Shown here: piece by piece, positions 7,155 to 59,484 of the stretch
Position numbering within the stretch: position 1 is the first letter of the stretch
How the letters are laid out: each line of letters opens with the position of its first letter
From: Eledone cirrhosa
Taxonomy: Eukaryota
NCBI GenBank assembly: GCA_964016885.1
Contig: OZ024750.1
Location: forward strand, 11,780,001 to 11,844,000
Length of the DNA: 64,000 nt
Direction: 5' to 3'
Translations under genes and position numbers: made by a program
Notes under the pieces: generated by a model
Seen by the model: the letters and a program-made list of their open reading frames with translations, nothing else
The model's database searches: none
Told to the model about the DNA's origin: nothing

Positions 7155-7309
7155 CATGTACGGGTGTGTGTGTATATATATATACATGTAAGGGTGTGTG
7201 TGTATATATATATATATGTAGGTGTGTGTGTATATATATATATATGTAGGTGTGTGTGTGTATATGTATATATATACATGTAGGTGTGTGTGTGTATATA
7301 TATATGTAG

Positions 7310-7341
<32 letters not shown>

Positions 7342-7386
7342 GTAGGTGTGTGTGTGTATATATATATACATGTAGGTGTGTGTATG

Positions 7387-7424
<38 letters not shown>

Positions 7425-8318
7425 AGTGCGTGTGTGTATATATATGTGTGTGTGTGTATGTATATGTATGAGTGTGTGTGTGTATGTGTGTGTGTGTGTG
7501 TTTGTTTGTATGTATGTGTGTGCATGTGTGTATACCCATGTTTAGCTAGGTAAAATGTGTGTATATGTGGCATGTGATTATATATATATATATACATGTA
7601 GGTGTGTATATGTGTACATATATATATATATGTGTATGAGTGTGTGTGTGTGTGTATATATATATATGTGTGTGTTTGTATGTATATGTGTGTGTATACC
7701 CATGTTTAGCTAGGTGAAATGTGTGTATATGTGGCATGTGATTATAATGTGTATGTGCATCATGTAATGTGTACATATGTGTGTGTATGTATGTATGTCT
7801 GTAAGGTGAAAAATAGTATTCCTGTGAGTATTCATTCATTCATGCAAGGACAAATCCATTTATAGGTGTGTGTGTGTGTGTGTCTGTGTGTTTATCTCTG
7901 TGTGTTTATCTCTGTGTGTTTATCTCTGTGTGTTTATCTCTGTGTGTGTGTATGAACATATGAACTAGCATCTGTTCTCAAGTTCGCACTGTATCTGTCG
8001 AAGATGTATGTGTGTGTATATGTATGTATGTTAGTATGTGTGTGTGTGTATATGTATGTATGTTAGTGTGTGCATGTACTTCCATTCTTTAAGAAAGCAT
8101 TGTTTATGTATACTAACAAATCAGGGGGAAAAAAACTGTGTATACACACACACACACACTGTATGTATGTATGTATATGTATGTATGTGTGTATGTATGT
8201 ATGTATGTATGTATGTATGTATGTATGTATGTATGTATGTATGCTTATTTTTACTCAGGCATAGCATCATAGATGTTCTGCATCCTAAGTTTTTCTTACT
8301 TTTTTTTCTGTTTATATA

Positions 8319-12192: not shown

Positions 12193-12461
12193 CTGCAGGA
12201 AAAAGAAAAGAAAAAATCATGGTCATGAAGAGAATTTCAGAGGGATCTATATTTTGAGAGGGAAGGATTGGGTGTAGGAGCTAGTGTGGAGCCTATGGGC
12301 AGTGGGGAAGAGGTGCACCATATCTGGGATGAGAGGAGGAGAGATAAGTGTATTGAAGGGAGTCCCTAAGCGGGGTGTGGCATAAGTCCTGCCAGTTCTG
12401 AAGAAACCACTGTAGTAATGATGGAAAAGAAGCAAGTGTAGTGTAGCTAAAGATAATAATT

Positions 12462-12641
12462 GTTTCTACTTTTTGGCACAAGGCCAGCAATTACCCCAGT
12501 GCATTACTGATACTTTATTTTATCGACCCCCGTAAGGATAAAAGGCAAAGTTAACCTCGGTGGGATTTGAACTCGGATTGCAAAGGGACGTAACTCAATG
12601 CTGCAAAGCATGGCATCAGACCCTCTGCCGATACTGCCAAT
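12462..12641 (-). mobile_element. tRNA-derived SINE
   Basis: Same family as 6743-6924. Confidence 0.92.
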
Positions 12642-12715
12642 CATTGGTTTTGTGTATTTGATGAAAAGTTACTACTAATGTCTGGTAGGTTGAGATGGAG
12701 GCTGAAGTATTTGTA

Positions 12716-12916
12716 TATTAGACTCATAGACATGTTGGTGGTATGATGATTATATATCATTTGAAACCTGTTATTATACATACTTGTTTAACCCCCGCCA
12801 TCTTGGATAAGTAGACAGTAACCTACTGCCGCTGCTGCTGCTGTTGCTGCTGCTGTACCAGTAGTGAGAATGTGCAACAAGTTACTTACTGTACTGTACT
12901 AAGTAGGAAAGAATTA

Positions 12917-12918
<2 letters not shown>
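12716..12918. repeat. Dispersed ~200-bp repeat, copy 1 (copy 2 at 40138-40333), abutting (TA)n
   Basis: Near-identical tattagactcatagacat...cccgccatcttggataag...aggaaagaattag. Confidence 0.9.
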
Positions 12919-12950
<32 letters not shown>

Positions 12951-22623: not shown

Positions 22624-23622
22624 CATAGTCAAGTTTTAATGGCTCCAATAATATATTAAAGGCAGCGAAGATGGTTTATAAACAACAGTAAAGAATTGGA
22701 CTGAAATTCATTTTCAGAAACCATTCTATTAGTTATATGTTCACATCAAATCAGTGCTGATTTTTTACCTTTTTTTATCCTTCCATGGCCTGTAGAATAT
22801 TATAAATAACATGCTAGATGTCCATAGTCAAGTTTCAATGGCTCCAATAATATATTAAAGGGCTGTGAAGATTGCTTATAAACAACAGCAGAGACTTGGA
22901 CTGATATGGCTCCAATAATAATATATTAAAGGGCTGTGAAGATTGCTTATAAACAACAGCAGAGACTTGAACTGATATGGCTCCAATAATATATTAAAGG
23001 GCTGTGAAGATTGCTTATAAACAACAGCAGAGACTTGGACTGATATGGCTCCAATAATAATATATTAAAGGGCTGTGAAGATTGCTTATAAACAACAGCA
23101 GAGACTTGAACTGATATGGCTCCAATAATATATTAAAGGGCTGTGAAGATTGCTTATAAACAACAGCAGAGACTTGGACTGATATGGCTCCAATAATATA
23201 TTAAAGGGCTGTGAAGATTGCTTATAAACAACAGCAGAGAATTGGACTGATATGGCTCCAATAACATATTAAAGGGTTGTGAAGATTGCTTATAAACAAC
23301 AGCAGAGAATTGGACTGATATGGCTCCAATAACATATTAAAGGGTTGTGAAGATGGTTTATAAACAACAGCAGAGAATTGGACTGGTATGGCTCCAATAA
23401 TATATTAAAGGGCTGTGAAGATTGCTTATAAACAACAGCAGAGAATTGGACTGATATGGCTCCAATAATAATATATTAAAGGGTTGTGAAGATTGCTTAT
23501 AAACAACAGCAGAGAATTGGGCTGAATTTCATTTCATTCTGTTGAACATTCTCATCCAACCTGTGTTAATTTTTACCTTTTTCATTCTTCCATAGCCTGT
23601 AGAAATTCTATAAATAACATGA
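22624..23622. repeat. 68/71-bp minisatellite (~10 copies) inside a ~200-bp duplicated unit
   Basis: ggctgtgaag recurs at 22861, 22932, 23000 and onward; flanks 22760-22815 and 23565-23622 are homologous. Confidence 0.93.
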
Positions 23623-26130: not shown

Positions 26131-26333
26131 ATATTTAATATAGAAATGGCTTCTATAGGACTAGAACTGTTTCATTGGAAGGAAATCATCTGGAAAGCCC
26201 TGGTGATTTCCTGATGATTTCCTTCGAAGTTCTAGTTCGGTAGAAGCCATTTCGATATTAAATATTTATACTCTATGTATTGAGTACCTTACTTACTGTC
26301 GTTACCCCCGATTGAACCCGGGATACACACACA
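26131..26333. mobile_element. Penelope-like palindromic remnant, family A (inverted hammerhead-bearing arms plus tail)
   Basis: Inverted repeat 26131-26265; arms contain C(T/A)GATGA...GAAA; tail gtattgagtacc...gaacccgggat; flanked by (CA)n. Confidence 0.7.
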
Positions 26334-35093: not shown

Positions 35094-35561
35094 GGCAATA
35101 TCATGTCTTGGTTTACTAATACGACATTCCAATAACAGCTGTTCCTTCCAGTCATTCCTTAAAATGCAGTTATGCCTTGTAGAGTAAAAATAATTCTTTT
35201 ATTTTATTTTCTGTGAGGAAACAATGCTAGCCAATATTTTGCCAATAAATAATCAGATTAATATACATATTAGCTAGAATATGGTCAGCTGTATCAATTA
35301 TTGACAGTTTTCTTATCATATTATGTACAGTTGTGGCTAATTTTTACATTATATTGCTGGATATTATATTGTGATCATATCACTGGTATCCCTATTGGAG
35401 TTAGGAGTAACAACAGTTTTCTAGAGATAGGATATTTCAGAGGATAAAAACTGAGGATAAGATTTAACTTTCCAGTATTTCCATGACATCTCAACTATAA
35501 ATTAGTTGTAGTTAATGGTATTATACAACAGATAATATAAATATAAGTAATTATAATAAAT

Positions 35562-36333
35562 GTTTCTACTTTTGGCACAAGGCCAGCAATTATTCCAGTG
35601 CATTACTGGTGCTTTATTTTATCGACCCCTTAAGGATGAAAGGCAAAGTTAACCTCGGCGAGATTTGAACTCAGAATGGCAAGGGCCGTAACTCTATGCG
35701 TCAAAGCATGGCATCCGACTCTCTACCGATACTGCCAATCCATCGCCCTTATATATGTAATTATAATAATTGTTTCTACTTTAGGCACAAGGCCAGCAAT
35801 TACCCAGTGCATTACTGGTACTTTATTTTATCGACCCCGTAAGGATAAAAGGCAAAGTCAACCTCGGCGGGATTTGAACTCAAATCATAAAGGGCCGTAA
35901 CTCTATGCTGCAAAGCATGGTGTCCGACCCTCTACCGATACTGCCAATCCACCATGGTTTCTGATTGAGGCACAGGGAGGGGGAAAGTTGTTTAAATCGA
36001 CCCCAGTGTGTTACTGGTACTTTATTTTATCAACCCTGTAATGATGAAAGGCAAAGTTAACCTCAGAATGTAAAGGGCTGTAACTCTATACCTCAAAGCA
36101 TGTTATCCGATGCTACACCGATACAGCCAATCCACCACCCCTAATACCAATAATAATAATTTTCTACTTTTGGCATAAGGCCAGCAATTATCCCAGTGCA
36201 TTACTGGTACTTTATCTTTTTGAGCCCGTAAGGATGAAAGGCAAAGTTAACCTCGGCAGGATTTGAAGTCAGGCCGTAAAGGGCCGTAACTCTATGCTGC
36301 AAAGCATAGCGTCCGACCCTCTACCGATACTGC
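35562..36333 (-). mobile_element. Four head-to-tail SINE copies (35562-35748, 35772-35953, 35957-36141, 36160-36333)
   Basis: Each copy runs tttctactt...ctgccaatcc or a variant; most are separated by (aat)n. Confidence 0.92.
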
Positions 36334-39171: not shown

Positions 39172-39322
39172 TCATTGTTGCTGATAAATACGCAAACTGG
39201 AATTTTAAATGGAAAAATTCTATGCACAAATATTCTTTGTGATTCTTGTACTTGTACTAAATGATTCTTTGACACAATTGATCAAGTGTGTGAGTGTGTA
39301 TGTGTATATATTTGTGTAAAGT

Positions 39323-39905
39323 AAGGTGGTGAATACTGGCAGTCGTTAGAATATCAGATAGAATACTTTGTGGTATTCATTCCTGCTCTCTGAGTTCAAA
39401 TCTCACCAAGGTCAACTTTACCTGTCATCCATTTGAAGTTGATAAAAAAGTACCAATCAAGTACTGGGGTCGATTTTTTTTTCTTCTCTATATCCCTTTC
39501 TCATTTCCAGTCTCTCACTTTCTATCCTTCCCTGGAAGAAATCTACTGTGTTCAGACCTGGAGAGGGGATGGGCTCCGCCAGGCTTTAAAAAAGTGCCCC
39601 CAATACGATGTATGTTACAAAGGTGCACCTACGACTGCATCGGGAGTTAGGGGACTAGAAAAAAGAAATATGTATGGATGCGCAGAGACAATAATCGTTG
39701 GATGAAGAAATACGAGGAAATGCCAGTGAAAGGAAGTCGTGGTTGAGGTAGGCCAAGAAAGAGCTGAGCAGAGGTTGGGAGAGCTGAAACTCACAGAAGC
39801 AACGACAAAGGATTACGGCATGTGGAGAGATGCCGTTCTGAGAAAGACCCATCCAACCCATGCAAGTGTAGATAAGCCGATGTAAAAACAACGATGATGA
39901 GGATG
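39323..39905 (+). mobile_element. Older SINE followed by an RTE 3' fragment
   Basis: SINE head and core, then an RTE-like end acccatccaacccatgcaagtgtagat..gatgtaaaaac(gat)n. Confidence 0.75.
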
Positions 39906-40137: not shown

Positions 40138-40333
40138 ATATTAGACTCATAGACATATTGGTGGTATGATGATTATATATCATTTGAAACCTGTTGTTGT
40201 ACATACTTGTTTAATCCCCGCCATCTTGGATAAGTAGACAGTAACTTACTGCTGCTGTTGTTGCTGTTCTGTACCAGTAGTGAGAATGTGCAACAAGTTA
40301 ATTACGTTACTCTACTAAGTAGGAAAGAATTAG
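40138..40333. repeat. Dispersed ~200-bp repeat, copy 2 (see 12716-12918)
   Basis: Near-identical sequence; also ends at (TA)n. Confidence 0.9.
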
Positions 40334-40337
40334 TATA

Positions 40338-40435
<98 letters not shown>

Positions 40436-40458
40436 CCACAACAGTTAATTCACTATTT

Positions 40459-40500
40459 CCAAGAACAATTTGTTTCACCTCAGACAGATCATCAGCTCGG
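40459..40500 (-). ncRNA. Minimal type I hammerhead ribozyme motif
   Basis: ccgag CUGAUGA ucugucugaggu GAA ACA aau UGU U cuugg: 5-bp stem I, complete core, 3-bp stem III, GUU site, weak stem II. Confidence 0.6.
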
Positions 40501-40540
40501 TTTAAATGTGATAATATGGAAAAGGATATATATAAATGAC

Positions 40541-40585
40541 TTCTACAGGTCTAGAACTGTTTCATTCGTATGAAATCATCAGGAA
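40541..40585 (-). ncRNA. Minimal type I hammerhead ribozyme motif (left arm of palindrome 40538-40639)
   Basis: uuc CUGAUGA u uuc auac gaa u GAA ACAG uucuagac CUGU A gaa: all three stems, complete core, GUA site, U-U at the base of stem II. Confidence 0.7.
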
Positions 40586-41155
40586 TATAATTCCTGATGA
40601 TTTCATACGAATGAAAATTCTAAACCACCTGTAGAAGTCCTTTTTATGTACAATAAAGATGCCTATGCTCTACCAACATATTGAGTCTCTTCTTTAATTG
40701 TGCCCCCCCCCCCCCCTCCCCACCACCACTTGGGAACCTGTGTGTATGTATGTGTGTGTGTGGGGGGGGGGGTCATGTGAGCGTTTGCTGTGACTTTTCT
40801 TATGTCATAGTTTTTATTTTCATGTTTTATTTTTAGGTCCACTTTGGTTTTAAGTAGCAATGTAATTTTAGTGAGGTTATTGTTCAAAATTGAATGGTTA
40901 TTGGGGTTAATGACTGCAGAAGAAAACAGAGAAAAGCACTTGATTAAGGATGGTGTTCTACAGAAAGAAAGAAACATTAGTTAAGATATTTAGATGGGAA
41001 ATATATAATAGTGAGACATGAGGAGTGACTGCTACATCCAGTATAATTTGGTGGAGATAGTAAATACTTTGTTTGAGGAGAAACTCGTAGGAGGTTAGTC
41101 AAATGATGAAACTTAACAAATGTAAAACCTTGGTAAGTTAAAACTTATTCATTAA

Positions 41156-41487
41156 CCTAAGAATGATCACAACTGTAACACCCTAAGAATGATCACAACT
41201 GTAACACCCTAAGAATGATCACAACTGTAACACCCTAAGAATGATCACAACTGTAACACCCTAAGAATGATCACAACTGTAACACCCTAAGAATGATCAC
41301 AACTGTAACACCCTAAGAATGATCACAACTGTAACAGTCTAAGAATTATCACAACTGTAACAGTCTAAGAATTATCACAACTGTAACAGTCTAAGAATTA
41401 TCACAACTGTAACACCCTAAGAATGATCACAACTGTAACACCCTAAGAATGATCACAATTGTAACACTCTAAGAATTATCACAACTA
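41156..41487. repeat. 26-bp minisatellite, ~13 copies
   Basis: Unit cctaagaatgatcacaactgtaacac. Confidence 0.97.
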
Positions 41488-43028
41488 AAACTGCTAAGTA
41501 TATTTAGAGCACTATGTAGTACAACAATACCTAAATGTAATTAAGACTCTCTATCTATCTATCTATCCATCTGGATAGATAGATAGATAGGTGTAAGTTC
41601 CGAGTATGAAATGATGATGAGCCAAGTGGAGTAGACAATTTTACTTACTGAGATTAAGTAGGTAAAGTAATTGAGGTAGTTAGAGTAAATGAGAGAATTC
41701 TGAATCTCAGATTACTTACAGACAATAGGATAACGATGATTATTTCTACTTATGTACCACAGTGAGGACTAAGTAATGAACAAAAGGATCAGTACTATGA
41801 TGGCATCTTACAGATAGCTTCAATAATGTGAGAGATTAGTGGAAGAGAGACAGTGATGTCTGGTAAGAGAGAAGGGGTGAGTGATGGGTAACAGTAGAGA
41901 TTGGTGATTGATGTTGATATTGTGTGACCTGGAGGGGAGACGGTGATGTCAAGCACATTTTTGCTGGTAAGATAGAAAGGATGAGTGATAGGATAACAGT
42001 AGAGATTGGTGATGGATGTGATATTGTGTGACCTAGAGAAGAGGGAGTGAGGGCTAGTAGTATAGAAAAGTGATGGGATAGAAATAGATTTGATGCAATC
42101 CCTTTCATCTACTGCAGCTTAAGAGACGTCTCTCCACTCTATGTAGTCTCTCTCTTTCTCTCCATATTTACAGTGTTTGTACTAGAGGACATGTCTTTTG
42201 TAATCCCCGGTCAACATGATCCTACATCAGACCCTTCATCGGGTTCAGTTTTCTTGAGGTAATTCTTCACATTTTAGTCCCATGTCTTTCTTGGTGTCAA
42301 CTTTAACCACAAGTACTATCTCCTACAAGTACCCAGCCCGTTATACAACCCTCACTCTCTTTACACTCCACATGGTGCTAGTGGTGTACACACACACACG
42401 TTATATTATTCTACAAAAGAACAATCAAGTTTAGACACATTCCTAGATTAATTAACTAATAAAGAACTGATTAATTTAAGTTATTAAACTTTGGGTTAGA
42501 AGTATAATTTATTCATGCTCCCTTAACAAAGTAAAGACGGAGACAACATTGTTGATGTGTCACCTGTTTTGTTCATTACCATTCCTTCATTAAAAGTAAT
42601 ATCTCTGTTTTATTCATTACCATTCTTCCAAGGTAATATATCAAAGACTTCCTAACTGATTAGATTAAGGTTTTTACTTAACAAAATGTATTATAAATTC
42701 TATTTAATTTCACTTTATTTAGTATTAATTTATTCTTCATCTGTAACAGCCTTGTTTAATACTACTTTTATCACAATGGAATCAATATTTATTTGAAACA
42801 CTTTCTTGACCATTCAAGACTGCAATATCCCTGTGAAGTTAGAATTTCTCTGAAAGTCTGTTCTTATTCCATAAAGAAGTTGGTCTTCTAATTCTTGACC
42901 GTATAAAGTATCTGAGTACCTTTTTAACTGTGTTCAGCCCCCCCCCCCCATATGAATCGGGAGTCCACCTATTATATATATATATATAGTAAAATAAAAC
43001 AAGGCCAAGTGCTTACGCCTTCATTACG

Positions 43029-43127
43029 TTTATTGGTTGGTGGCGCGCGTTTCGCCACTGATCAGCTCAAGGTTTGATCTGTATCGATCTAGCTCGACTT
43101 CGTAATCCCCGGCTCGTCAGCCCTCTT
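43029..43127 (-). ncRNA. Degenerate hammerhead motif with long stem II insertion and downstream AATAAA
   Basis: CUGACGA GCC...GGC GAAA CGCGCG CC; the site is GCC rather than GUC; lies between (TA)n tracts. Confidence 0.5.
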
Positions 43128-43246
43128 ATAATGGTAATGAAAAAAACAAAATATATATATATATATATTTAAAAGGTATTCAGAAATAACAACACAATCG
43201 GTACAGTATATGGAAGGAACATATTAGGTTAACGCTTGAAATAGCA

Positions 43247-43290
43247 GGAAGAGGGTCTTAACGTTTTGGATGGTCGTCCTTCATCAACAC
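43247..43290 (-). ncRNA. Degenerate hammerhead motif
   Basis: UUGAUGA a GGA cgacca UCC AAAA CGUU A; two core substitutions; palindromic AACGUU stem III. Confidence 0.4.
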
Positions 43291-43323
43291 ACACACAAAA
43301 ATTACTAAGATCACTAAATCAGA

Positions 43324-43392
<69 letters not shown>

Positions 43393-43489
43393 ATAATAAT
43401 AATAGTAGTAATAATAATAAATTTGAAGACTAAAATCCAAAGAGGGCTCGATAAGGATAAATATATATCAAATATATAAGGACCGTAGA

Positions 43490-43570
43490 GCAAAGTTTCA
43501 GAAGATCCCGTTAAGGGTGAAAGCAGCGATTCTTTGCTTAAACTTTAATCTGTTATTTTAATTTTTAAAA

Positions 43571-43604
<34 letters not shown>

Positions 43605-43739
43605 GTGTGTGTAATGTGTAATTTTATAATGTGTAATATAATATATATATATATATATGTGTGTGTAATGTGTAATTTTATAATGTGTAATATAATATAT
43701 ATATATATATGTGTGTGTAATGTGTAATTTTATAATGTG

Positions 43740-43777
<38 letters not shown>

Positions 43778-43839
43778 TAAAATAACAGATTAAAGTTTAA
43801 GCAAAGAATCGATGCTTTCACCCTTAACGGGATCTTCTG
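43490..43839. repeat. 64-bp inverted repeat (1 mismatch) around a TA-rich spacer; arms carry a hammerhead-like motif
   Basis: 43499-43562 versus 43776-43839; motif CAGAAGA t ccc gttaa ggg t GAAA. Confidence 0.85.
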
Positions 43840-44074
43840 TACTATTATTACTATGTGTGTGTGTGTGTGTGTGTGTAGTTTTTACTTTGGTCGGCTTCGT
43901 TTTGTTACATTTTAGTTATTTCACCTCTTCACTTTTCTTCCTTTCCTTCTTTGAAAAGATTATCCTGAAATATTTTTATCGGTCAGATAAAAACAACAAC
44001 AGCAACAGACACATAAATACACAAAACAAAACCAAAAGAAAAACGAAGTATCATGAATATATATATATAATATA

Positions 44075-44111
<37 letters not shown>

Positions 44112-44805
44112 TAGAGAGAGTATGTTTAGTGTGATGTATATAACTGCACCTGTTCACATTTGGTGTTTTTCTAAGCTTGGTTTGAGACAGCTTGTTGATA
44201 ACAATGCGTAACTAAGATATTACACATTGATAACTTAAATATACAAGAAACTTGTTTCTTGGCTTCAAACATCCTAGATTTATGGCAGCAACTACAACTA
44301 CAACAACAATATATGTAGTAATAATATATAGTAACAATTGTAAAAACTCTGGGACTGATGACTGACTTGTATGTAGAGTTTACTGAAGAGGTTCTTTGGT
44401 TGAGTTTAAAGGGATGGAATAGAGAGATAGAGAGATTTGTGACAGCTGGTGGTATTAATAATGATGGGGAGGGGGGGGGGGGTCAGTGGTGGCGATGTAG
44501 CTAATGGTGGTAAAGACATTTCCATAATGGTGTTAAGGGATTCTCTTCCATCTTTGCTACATCAAGGAACACACAATTTGCTCTTTGTAAAATTTCCTCA
44601 AATGAGAAATATTATCAACTTTCCTCATTTCTCTGTACGTGTAATTTCCAGGGTCATTTAAAACATCTCTCTCTCCCTCGCACACATAGTGGGCTTCTGT
44701 ACAGTTTATGCCTACCAAATTTATTCAGAAGGTATTGGTCCATGTGAAGCTATAGTAAAAGACATATTGCCCAAATTACCATGCAGTGGGATAGAATCAT
44801 CATCA

Positions 44806-45475
44806 TCATCATCATCATCATCACCGTTTTACGTCCGTTCTTCCACGCTAGCATGGGTTAGACGGGTTGTCCTGTTGTGGGCAGTGTCTGGTCGGCTGAC
44901 CATGCCTTGCTCATACAGGAACTGATCTGGCTTGATTTCTACAGCTGGATGCCCTTCCTAACACCAACCTCATTTACAGTGAGTGCTGGGTGCTTTTTCG
45001 TGGCGCCTACACGTCCACTTTACAGTGTGGGCTGGGTGCTTTTTTGCCGTGGCACCTCCACGACCACCTTGCGGTGGGGGGGGGGGGGCATGTTGTTTAT
45101 ATGCTTCAGCATGTACCCATGGGAGGTCGGGTACCCTGTATTACTGCGTGACGCCAGAGGTCACGGTCGTGTGTCATTGACTTTGAGAGGTGTAGTTGGG
45201 TAAAGTCGGCTTTTATCACCTCATCCCAAGTCATCTTGGGTCTCCCCACTCCGCGGTTTCCATCAACTTCTAGTGCTCTGCACCTTTTTATGCAGCTGTC
45301 ATCCTTCATACGCATCACATGTCCATACCAGCGTAACCGCCTCTCCTGCACGCAGCATTTGATTCCTCTTATGCTCAGTCTCTCTCTCAATTCATTTATG
45401 CTTTGTCGTTCGCGTATATTGCTGTTACACATCCATCGGAGCATGCAGGCTTCGTTTCTCTCTAATCTACGTAAG
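44806..45475 (-). mobile_element. RTE-clade LINE, 5'-truncated (ORF C-terminus, 3'UTR, (GAT)n tail)
   Basis: ORF 45106-45489: MLRWMC...LRERL.IRGI...QERRLRWYGHVMRM...GRPKMTWDEVI...DRDLWR, a typical RTE C-terminus. Confidence 0.92.
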
Positions 45476-45960
45476 AATACCAATCCCAATTTCTAACTTC
45501 AAAAAGCTATTATCATAGCAGTAATACGCTTGGACAGGATTTGAGAGATACGGGGTTCAATTCTTCATGGGTGCTATCCGGTTATTTTCAGACATATAAC
45601 GTCTACTTTCTTCAGCTATAGAAAACTTACCAAACAAAAGGCTGGGAAGACTACTCAGCTGTTTCCAAGACATAACAACCTCCCTAGTGTTAGTATCATA
45701 ATATGGATTTGGTAGAGTACAGGAATGTATTTAAGTGAGATGAAGTCCAGACCTTCCAGCTCGTCTGAGAACTTGGTAAAGTGTGGCAAGATGCTGGCCT
45801 CCAGCTTATCTGAGAGATCAGTAGCTCTGCTTGAGTAGTGACTCGTTCTGTGACGAACCATCCAACCCTTGTTACCAGGGAAAATGGATGTTAATTGATG
45901 GAAATGATGATGATGTTAAATGAATTATTTCACTTTTTTTAACTGATCAAAATAATAATT

Positions 45961-55175: not shown

Positions 55176-57630
55176 TGGACCTCACTGCAGACCTGATTCT
55201 GTAGGCCTCACAGAAGACATGATACTGTGGACCTCACAGAAGACATGATACTGTGGGCCTCACAGAAGACATGATTCTGTGGACCTCACAGAAGACATGA
55301 TTCTGTGGACCTCACAGAAGACACGATACTGTGGACCTCACAGAAGACATGATTCTGTGGACCTCACAGAAGACATGATTCTGTGGACCTCACAGAAGAC
55401 ATGATATTGTAGGCCTCACAGAAGACATGATTCTGTGGACCTCACAGAAGACATGATACTGTGGGCCTCACAGAAGATATGATACTGTGGACCTCACAGA
55501 AGACACGATTCTGTGGACCTCACAGAAGACACGATTCTGTGGACCTCACAGAAGACACGATTCTGTGGACCTCACAGAAGACACGATTCTGTGGACCTCA
55601 CAGAAGACACGATTCTGTGGACCTCACAGAAGACATGATTCTGTGGACCTCACAGAAGACACGATTCTGTGGACCTCACAGAAGACATGATATTGTAGGC
55701 CTCACAGAAGACATGATACTATGGCTCACAGAAGACATGATATTGTAGGCCTCACAGAAGACATGATTCTGTGGACCTCACAGAAGACACGATTCTGTGG
55801 ACCTCACAGAAGACATGATATTGTAGGCCTCACAGAAGACATGATTCTGTGGACCTCACAGAAGACACGATTCTGTGGACCTCACAGAAGACACGATTCT
55901 GTGGACCTCACAGAAGACACGATTCTGTGGACCTCACAGAAGACATGATATTGTAGGCCTCACAGAAGACATGATTCTGTGGACCTCACAGAAGACATGA
56001 TACTGTGGGCCTCACAGAAGATATGATACTGTGGACCTCACAGAAGACACGATTCTGTGGACCTCACAGAAGACACGATTCTGTGGACCTCACAGAAGAC
56101 ACGATTCTGTGGACCTCACAGAAGACACGATTCTGTGGACCTCACAGAAGACATGATTCTGTGGACCTCACAGAAGACACGATTCTGTGGACCTCACAGA
56201 AGACACGATTCTGTGGACCTCACAGAAGACACGATTCTGTGGACCTCACAGAAGACACGATTCTGTGGACCTCACAGAAGACATGATTCTGTGGACCTCA
56301 CAGAAGACACGATTCTGTGGACCTCACAGAAGACATGATATTGTAGGCCTCACAGAAGACATGATACTATGGCTCACAGAAGACATGATATTGTAGGCCT
56401 CACAGAAGACATGATTCTGTGGACCTCACAGAAGACACGATTCTGTGGACCTCACAGAAGACATGATATTGTAGGCCTCACAGAAGACATGATTCTGTGG
56501 ACCTCACAGAAAACACGATTCTGTGGACCTCACAGAAGACACGATTCTGTGGACCTCACAGAAGACACGATTCTGTGGACCTCACAGAAGACACGATTCT
56601 GTGGACCTCACAGAAGACACGATTCTGTGGACCTCACAGAAGACACGATTCTGTGGACCTCACAGAAGACATGATACTGTGGACCTCACAGAAGACATGA
56701 TACTGTGGACCTCACAGAAGACACGATTCTGTGGACCTCACAGAAGACACGATACTGTGGGCCTCACAGAAGACATGATTCTGTGGACCTCACAGAAGAC
56801 ACGATTCTGTGGACCTCACAGAAGACACGATTCTGTGGACCTCACAGAAGACACGATTCTGTGGACCTCACAGAAGACACGATTCTGTGGACCTCACAGA
56901 AGACACGATTCTGTGGACCTCACAGAAGACACGATTCTGTGGACCTCACAGAAGACACGATTCTGTGGACCTCACAGAAGACACGATTCTGTGGACCTCA
57001 CAGAAGACACGATTCTGTGGACCTCACAGAAGACACGATTCTGTGGACCTCACAGAAGACACGATTCTGTGGACCTCACAGAAGACACGATTCTGTGGAC
57101 CTCACAGAAGACATGATACTGTGGACCTCACAGAAGACACGATTCTGTGGACCTCACAGAAGACACGATTCTGTGGACCTCACAGAAGACACGATTCTGT
57201 GGACCTCACAGAAGACACGATTCTGTGGACCTCACAGAAGACATGATACTGTGGACCTCACAGAAGACATGATACTGTGGACCTCACAGAAGACACGATT
57301 CTGTGGACCTCACAGAAGACACGATTCTGTGGACCTCACAGAAGACATGATTCTGTGGACCTCGCAAAGGACATGATACTGTGGACCTCGCAAAGGACAT
57401 GATACTGTGGACCTCGCAGAGGACATGATACTGTGGGCCTCGCAGAGGACATGATACTGTGGGCCTCGCAGAGGACATGATACTGTGGGCCTCGCAGAGG
57501 ACATGATACTGTGGGCCTCGCAGAGGACATGATACTGTGGGCCTCGCAGAGGACATGATACTGTGGGCCTCGCAGAGGACATGATACTGTGGGCCTCGCA
57601 GAGGACATGATACTGTGGGCCTCACAGAAG
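55176..57630. repeat. 26-bp satellite, ~94 copies
   Basis: Unit ctcacagaagacacgattctgtggac; 3' block variant ctcgcagaggacatgatactgtgggc. Confidence 0.98.
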
Positions 57631-57914
57631 AGTTGATACTATGCTGAAATCTCATTTAGGTTGTACCACTGTTGAAACAAAAGTGTGGATGCTTGCATGG
57701 GTCAGACAGGCTGTCATGTTTTGAGGGGAGGGGTTGGACTGGTCAGGTGATCATATCTTGCTCATGCTTTCCATTTCTGGTTCGGTTTCCATGGCTGAAT
57801 ACCTCCCTCCCCCCATTCCCAATCACAATGATAGAGATACATACCAGGTTTTCTTAAATGTCTAATTTGATTAAGATTATGGATTCATCTTATCAAATAG
57901 ATGGAATTCTTTAT

Positions 57915-59068: not shown

Positions 59069-59484
59069 TAAGAATATTTTCGAAGCAGTGATCGAGTTTG
59101 AAATTATAAATGTAAGCTATCGCCGTATTTTGACTAAAGAAATAAATTAAAGAAATTATTTAGCCTGATAGTGGGGTTAAGAACCCTCGGAGAAATGGAA
59201 AAAGATGAGTATTGACGTACATGGGAGTCATGTGTTGGTGTAATGGCAGCACAGTGGTCTGGATAACCGCAGATGTGGGTTCGACTCCCATGTACGTCAA
59301 TACTCATCTTTTTCCATTTCTCCGAGGGTTCTTAACCCCACTATCAGGCTAAATAATTTCTTTAATTTCTTTAGTCAAAATACGATGATAGCTTATATTT
59401 ATAATTTATATATATATATATCAAGTACCTATATATATATATATATAAATCAGGATGGAATCGGTTTGAAATTGGTAATACCAT
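58976..59484. repeat. Nested inverted repeat: outer 38-bp arms, (TA)n, inner ~125-bp arms
   Basis: 58976-59013 versus 59447-59484; 59101-59229 versus 59283-59407. Confidence 0.92.
59229..59299 (+). tRNA. tRNA-like cloverleaf (anticodon GGA, short variable loop); probable pseudo-tRNA or SINE head
   Basis: A box TGGTGTAATGG; D stem GTGT/GCAC; anticodon stem GTGGT/ACCGC with loop CTGGATA; T arm GTGGG-TTCGACT-CCCAT; acceptor 6/7 paired with three G-U; T5 at 59309-59313. Confidence 0.65.

Follow-up and report, generated by a model that had tools for sequence, protein, structure and literature searches.

Two hammerhead ribozyme motifs on the minus strand of a 64 kb window of Eledone cirrhosa DNA (the window being the whole stretch analyzed, 64,000 nt) are probably the heavily shortened 3′ ends of two Hydra-type Penelope-like elements (PLEs), which inserted successively beside a TA run. 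We assign this reading a probability of about 0.78. The motifs, here called HHR1 and HHR2, both carry U10.1-U11.1 at the base of stem II and lie in two different repeat families, A and B. These families, and probably a third one, are new members of a known PLE hammerhead type.

Two hammerhead motifs with U10.1-U11.1

HHR1 (40541–40586, minus strand) is a type I minimal hammerhead with a complete core. Its C3 lies at 40582, stem I retains just 3 core-proximal bp (40585–40583 with 40541–40543), and stem II has 3 bp, with U10.1 at 40575 and U11.1 at 40564. Helix III consists of 4 bp and an 8-nt loop with the palindrome UCUAGA; the cleavage site is GUA (N17 = 40544). HHR2 (40459–40500, minus strand) is likewise a type I minimal hammerhead with a complete core, with C3 at 40495, U10.1 at 40488, U11.1 at 40477, a stem I of 5 bp including one G·U, a near-palindromic helix III of 3–4 bp and a GUU site (N17 = 40464). 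Its stem II has 2 bp, C-G and U·G at this locus and C-G and C-G in most family B contigs. In both motifs the type I core CUGANGA...GAAA...UH is set within three helices. The two folds agree in every element with those drawn in the initial annotation, and the predicted cuts are 80 nt apart, as it had stated. We rejected the alternative in which the first U is the common 9a bulge, because stem II then has 0 bp. Both motifs also have a short open frame with U11.1-G12-A13 as its end, which was likewise dropped; the third family described below lacks it.

A strict descriptor, applied to both strands of the whole 64 kb, yielded exactly two matches, HHR1 and HHR2. As a null model we used 100 dinucleotide shuffles in 1-kb blocks with three increasingly strict helix III cut-offs, for which the mean number of matches was 0.30, 0.15 and 0.01. 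Two matches were reached in 4 of 100 shuffles at the loosest cut-off and in none at the two stricter ones, which HHR1 and HHR2 both pass. When one core mismatch was tolerated, four matches were obtained, three of them with U-U, compared to a mean of 0.025 U-U matches in 40 shuffles; the fourth, which overlaps HHR2, appears to be a chance register. HHR1 and HHR2 are confirmed as real hammerhead motifs, above chance. The Rfam hammerhead models, which are built on canonical forms, gave no match at the gathering score, nor at E-values up to 10 (40200–44200); both Rfam and descriptors requiring a 10.1-11.1 pair miss families A and B.

To survey variation within the two families, contigs from three public runs, all of one sample in one study, were aligned to positions 40434–40700 at an identity of at least 80%. 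The 7,309–7,871 contigs aligned per run mark this region as a dispersed multi-copy repeat. Among the variants reaching at least 3% (40 listed of 49), those inside the hammerheads are confined to loop II (40568–40571; 40481, 40483–40485) and position 40486, where A>G makes up 3015 of a depth of 3545 in run X1 and turns the local U·G into C-G. The lists of A>C (2 places per run) and A>T (5, 6 and 6 places) are complete and hold no entry at 40575, 40564, 40488 or 40477. G or A at 10.1 or 11.1 stays below 3% in both families among contigs at least 80% alike; as 1–3 A>G rows per run lie outside the listed set, the exclusion of C at these positions is less strict. Within these survey limits, U-U is a fixed trait of families A and B. 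The earlier suggestion of a recurrent variant rather than decay is borne out, as U-U is fixed in the contigs of both families and present in all three well-formed hammerheads of the window. The two further motifs adduced for it (26160–26195 and 43499–43522) do have U-U, but each has CAGA in place of CUGA (U4 to A); in the one at 26160–26195, helix III is broken and stem II shortened as well. U-U is in itself no surprise, having been reported in natural hammerheads (PMC3088659) and being the commonest state among the Hydra-clade PLEs tabulated in PMC8557442.

The third U-U hammerhead family forms a convergent inverted pair (43492–43546 on the plus strand and 43776–43839 on the minus strand; 64 nt, 98%) around a TA-rich array, with a 7-bp stem I, a 3-bp stem II and a 4-bp helix III. 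Both of its arms read CAGAAGA (U4 to A), which may reflect a single lesion that was copied once, or a variant of the family.

Two repeat families, their junction and an inverted pair

The left arm of family A, which contains HHR1 (40586–40527, minus strand), is very abundant in the contigs. Its short 3′ end (40527–40540, minus strand) closes in a short TA run, and family B begins there; loose contig ends lie before 40526–40534, and family B contigs stop at 40526. The family B segment (40434–40526, minus strand) is composed of 26 nt upstream of HHR2, HHR2 itself and a 25-nt 3′ end, which abuts a (TA)n microsatellite of ~50 units (40334–40432), the likely insertion target. Among the pieces listed, family B contigs have 11–14 differences over 40434–40526. 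In run X1, the summed contig depth peaks at 1.42 million at HHR1 and is ~5,700 at HHR2. The A–B junction is found at single-copy depth, with one bridging contig among 24 listed pieces (22,984 more). This contig (run X1 record 5, 40456–40554, 0 differences) is identical to the locus and has a depth of 7.7. Depth ratios give rough copy numbers of 6,000–185,000 for family A and 24–740 for family B, where contig depth does not equal copy number and the bracket allows for up to 31-fold overlap counting (assumed, from word length).

No blastn similarity was found between HHR1 and HHR2, and no tandem repeat spans them among 150 of 156 tandem repeats. Together with the unequal depth of the two families and the locus-specific junction, these results contradict the initial annotation, which had read the two motifs as a tandem unit. 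Head-to-tail repeats of one unit with a hammerhead in each, the arrangement that defines non-LTR retrozymes, were not found. Profile searches of the window detected no copies of families A and B besides four family A arms and one family B segment. Family A patterns had no hits in viral contigs or in metagenomes; a looser family A pattern hit nine metagenome loci, none of which folds as a hammerhead. A generic pattern hit at least 122 viral loci, and two of all 131 loci pass the descriptor, with the same long loose match; we judged these two to be chance and not relatives.

HHR1 is one arm of a palindrome of 27 perfect bp (40560–40586 with 40590–40616), or ~50 bp with indels, with a predicted fold of −68.4 kcal/mol (z −13), which none of 200 shuffles equaled. 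The other arm is an inverted second family A hammerhead (40590–40639, plus strand), which has the left arm's loop II and a helix III damaged by indels; in the initial annotation the fold of HHR1 was correct, but this inverted copy went unmentioned. The plus-strand arm alone continues into a longer 3′ tail (40640–40686), which is repeated in contigs, and at 26240–26285 a plus-strand arm again has a related tail behind it. This arm belongs to a second, more decayed family A inverted pair (26132–26285) with its own loop II common to both arms; its left arm has the CAGA core and broken helix III, and the GAAA box of its right arm is deleted. Per pair, the arms share loop II and a stem I variant, both of which differ between 40 kb and 26 kb, and each pair therefore likely stems from one template in one event. 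An inverted, 5′-truncated copy with a tail at one end is thus found for family A at 40.5 kb and 26.2 kb; an inverted copy with a tail was not seen for family B. Sub-threshold Rfam matches to miRNA precursors at 40541–40627 merely reflect the palindrome.

In the window, none of the four family A arms begins more than ~10 nt from the core. The loose ends of contigs just upstream of family A are heterogeneous, with an agreement of 0.41–0.42 over 30 letters, in counts that weigh rare contigs as much as abundant ones. Behind 40585/40586 these ends begin with GTC (187–208 contigs) or AGCC (298–340 contigs). On the minus strand, both would add 3 bp to stem I after a 1-base bulge and match the 3′ variants at 40 kb and 26 kb. 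This suggests covariation; stem I of family A is probably longer by 3 bp beyond a 1-nt bulge, and the local HHR1 would have lost half of its stem I.

In a nearest-neighbor model, the hammerhead fold costs ~+7 kcal/mol for HHR1 or HHR2 alone and neither adopts it; run without core energies and without a positive control, the model ranks constructs and is no proof of inactivity. For a read-through RNA with the inverted arm, the same model gives the HHR1 helices a probability of 0.000 at a cost of +54 kcal/mol, and the arm is predicted to sequester HHR1. The construct 40440–40600, proposed earlier for a cleavage assay, carries 10 nt of the inverted arm, and these are predicted to add to the block of HHR1 (+17.5 kcal/mol, compared with +11.9 kcal/mol without the arm). 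Helix III homoduplexes were calculated at −15.6 kcal/mol for HHR1 and −3.4 kcal/mol for HHR2, and the A–B heteroduplex at −2.8 kcal/mol, out of register. The helix III regions of the two motifs are poor dimer partners, which further argues against a tandem unit, and dimer activity would need two copies of one family. Lunse, Weinberg and Breaker (RNA Biol) reportedly describe small PLE hammerheads that cleave as dimers, and their work may cover such variants.

Several other repeats were noted in the window. A dispersed repeat at 40138–40340 and 12715–12924 (plus strand; 91% over 210 nt) has a small hairpin and, after it, a GAAA box but lacks a CUGANGA box, and both copies end in a (TA)n run; it may be another PLE end. 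An open frame of 128 amino acids (45106–45492, minus strand) has no Pfam match and presumably resembles the C-terminal end of an RTE-type LINE protein; a similar decayed LINE-like stretch may lie near 39660–39880. Three regions (12460–12640, 35541–36333 and 39315–39475) contain what we take to be a SINE-like repeat as in octopus genomes, which at 35.5 kb is present in ~4 tandem copies. The only Rfam match at the gathering score is tRNA-like (59229–59299, plus strand; 40 bits); it has a poorly paired acceptor stem and is likely a pseudogene or the head of a SINE. A minisatellite with a 26 nt unit occupies 55176–57631 (~95 copies, 94% matches).

Proposed origin and alternative explanations

Families A and B are assigned to PLEs by their RNA anatomy, the structure of the insertions and the target. 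Both motifs are minimal hammerheads with a palindromic helix III near a 3′ end. Family B ends 25 nt past stem I at (TA)50 and the ends of family A have TA-rich flanks, consistent with a (TA)n preference, which is not unique to the Hydra clade. The inverted pair with its one-sided tail in family A and the (TA)n target are Penelope hallmarks. U10.1-U11.1 together with a helix III of 3–4 bp, though not a formal criterion, is typical of Hydra-clade hammerheads. None of the 148 ORFs scanned (of 240 filtered, all from beyond position 23,500) has a Pfam match to a reverse transcriptase or GIY-YIG domain, whereas the ORF of an EN+ PLE encodes a telomerase-like reverse transcriptase and a GIY-YIG endonuclease, and Hydra-clade ORFs are marked by RWK, DKT and CxCX5C motifs and lack CCHH. 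As the copies are truncated at the ribozyme and no ORF of an element is linked to them, we infer the clade from these features. The scan also returned two unrelated sub-threshold matches. The motifs of families A and B have no match in the searched part of the supplement of Craig 2021 (PMC8557442).

In the mechanism that we propose, the PLE protein would nick TA-rich DNA, and reverse transcription would start just downstream of the ribozyme and halt close to the base of stem I. A single template would have been written twice in family A, in opposite orientations, because loop II is common to the two arms of each pair but differs between this locus and 26 kb. Cleavage in the source elements would take place in a homodimer formed via the palindromic helix III, slowly or with help from the protein. 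At the present locus HHR1 is predicted to be silent, since half of stem I is gone and the inverted arm would zip it into a hairpin, and cutting by HHR2 would require another RNA of family B. Truncation at stem I is stereotyped and could offer clues to the origin of PLE inversions. A more far-reaching idea, which we consider doubtful, is that family A is a ribozyme-only mini-retroelement, a U-U hammerhead plus tail of ~60–160 nt in thousands to ~100,000 copies. Its reverse transcription would end at the base of stem I and flip, laying down a self-silencing palindrome that seeds the transcriptome with ~50-bp hairpins. The start of all four arms close to the core and the heterogeneous upstream contig ends would fit this idea. 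If true, it would map onto the ribozyme itself a fixed point where Penelope reverse transcription stops or switches.

Other origins were weighed against this reading. The motifs could be PLE-derived but from another clade (Neptune, Nematis or Penelope/Poseidon), or family A could be a non-autonomous mini-element of ribozyme plus tail, and we regard this as unlikely. It would be in line with the missing link to any ORF among those scanned, the start of all four family A arms at ~10 nt or less from the core and the low agreement of the upstream loose ends; microsatellites are also targeted by Neptune (PMC8557442). However, the loose-end agreement comes from counts in which rare and abundant contigs weigh the same, and the other metazoan PLE hammerheads have a G10.1-C11.1 consensus, whereas U-U with a helix III of 3–4 bp points to the Hydra clade.

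Very unlikely is a single retrozyme-like unit with two ribozymes, from which an 80-nt RNA would be excised, perhaps with an intramolecular dimer and circularization. The common strand, the two intact cores and the distance between the cuts would fit such a unit, but the motifs share neither sequence similarity nor a tandem repeat, their junction occurs at single-copy depth only, the heteroduplex is predicted to be weak and out of register, and HHR1 is predicted to be sequestered by the inverted arm. The short palindrome at two loci, the TA ends and the very high abundance would also suit a foldback or MITE-type DNA transposon with merely hammerhead-like arms. We hold this to be highly improbable, as the listed variation of the family falls in loop II and spares the core and stems (40 listed of 49 variants), the tail occurs on a single arm, and the pair of the third family has the opposite polarity. 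Chance matches in AT-rich DNA, which the few shuffles with two matches at the loosest cut-off might suggest, are the least credible explanation given the result at the stricter cut-offs and the location of both motifs in repeat families with structure-compatible variation. We therefore retain the interpretation as two truncated ends of Hydra-type PLEs.

Comparison with known hammerheads

The metazoan minimal PLE hammerheads described by Cervera and de la Pena 2014 (PMC4209133) resemble the present motifs in their palindromic helix III and predicted action as dimers; the monomers were inactive and the dimers weak. That study also reports solo copies of truncated elements and close pairs on opposite strands, as at this locus. 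Its consensus differs from HHR1 and HHR2 by a bulged 9a, G10.1-C11.1 and a longer stem II, and among the 56 rows of its Fig. S3 the U-U form appears only in that of Hydra magnipapillata. The animal non-LTR retrozymes (bioRxiv 10.64898/2026.07.22.740005) are likewise type I, non-coding and PLE-derived but consist of head-to-tail repeats of one unit, whereas here the motifs are unrelated and not part of a tandem repeat. In the repeat annotation of O. vulgaris (PMC13282606), 31 recently active Penelope-like families are listed, and the words hammerhead and ribozyme do not occur in its main text.

A typical PLE insertion is a 5′-truncated, often inverted copy with a tail of 30–40 bp at one end (PMC8557442). 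In the reconstituted Poseidon system (PMC11167929), the protein nicks AT-rich DNA and reverse transcription starts internally, downstream of the hammerhead at two sites; this explains the tail. The Poseidon ribozyme cut only with the protein present and was dispensable for insertion.

Natural hammerheads with U10.1-U11.1 were reported by Perreault et al. 2011 (PMC3088659), according to whom this is the best tolerated mispair at the position and stems II of 2 bp are common. There, U-U is a rare variant, whereas in the present abundant animal repeats it is a fixed family trait. This was the only report of U-U returned by a full-text search; the section on the clade in PMC8557442 is silent on it.

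The closest relatives are the hammerheads of Hydra-clade PLEs, which insert in (TA)n (PMC8557442). Penelope-1_HM to -9_HM, Hydra-1_aJap and Hydra-1_cRog share with the present motifs type I, a complete core, U-U and a short stem II, and the clade also has the 3–4 bp palindromic helix III and (TA)n targets found here. In File S2 of that study, U occupies both 10.1 and 11.1 in 14 of 25 distinct Hydra-clade families, which also have a palindromic helix III of 3–4 bp, by a hand count of 26 rows in which one family is listed twice and two families share one motif. The hosts of these U-U families are cnidarian, echinoderm and arthropod. In File S1, (TA)n targets are given for 24 of 27 Hydra-clade families (hand count), one of them from Octopus bimaculoides. 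The octopus element Hydra-1_Obim has a hammerhead without U-U, which matches neither family A nor family B. Hydra-clade hammerheads lie ~100–200 nt from the 3′ end of the element, and one family has an inverted 5′-truncated copy (PMC8557442). The helix III loop has 8 nt in HHR1 versus 1–3 nt in the motifs listed there. To the families listed so far, this locus and its surroundings add at least two, probably three, with U-U hammerheads, one of them very abundant. U10.1-U11.1 is a quick marker of Hydra-type Penelope ends, a trait already visible in the published table.
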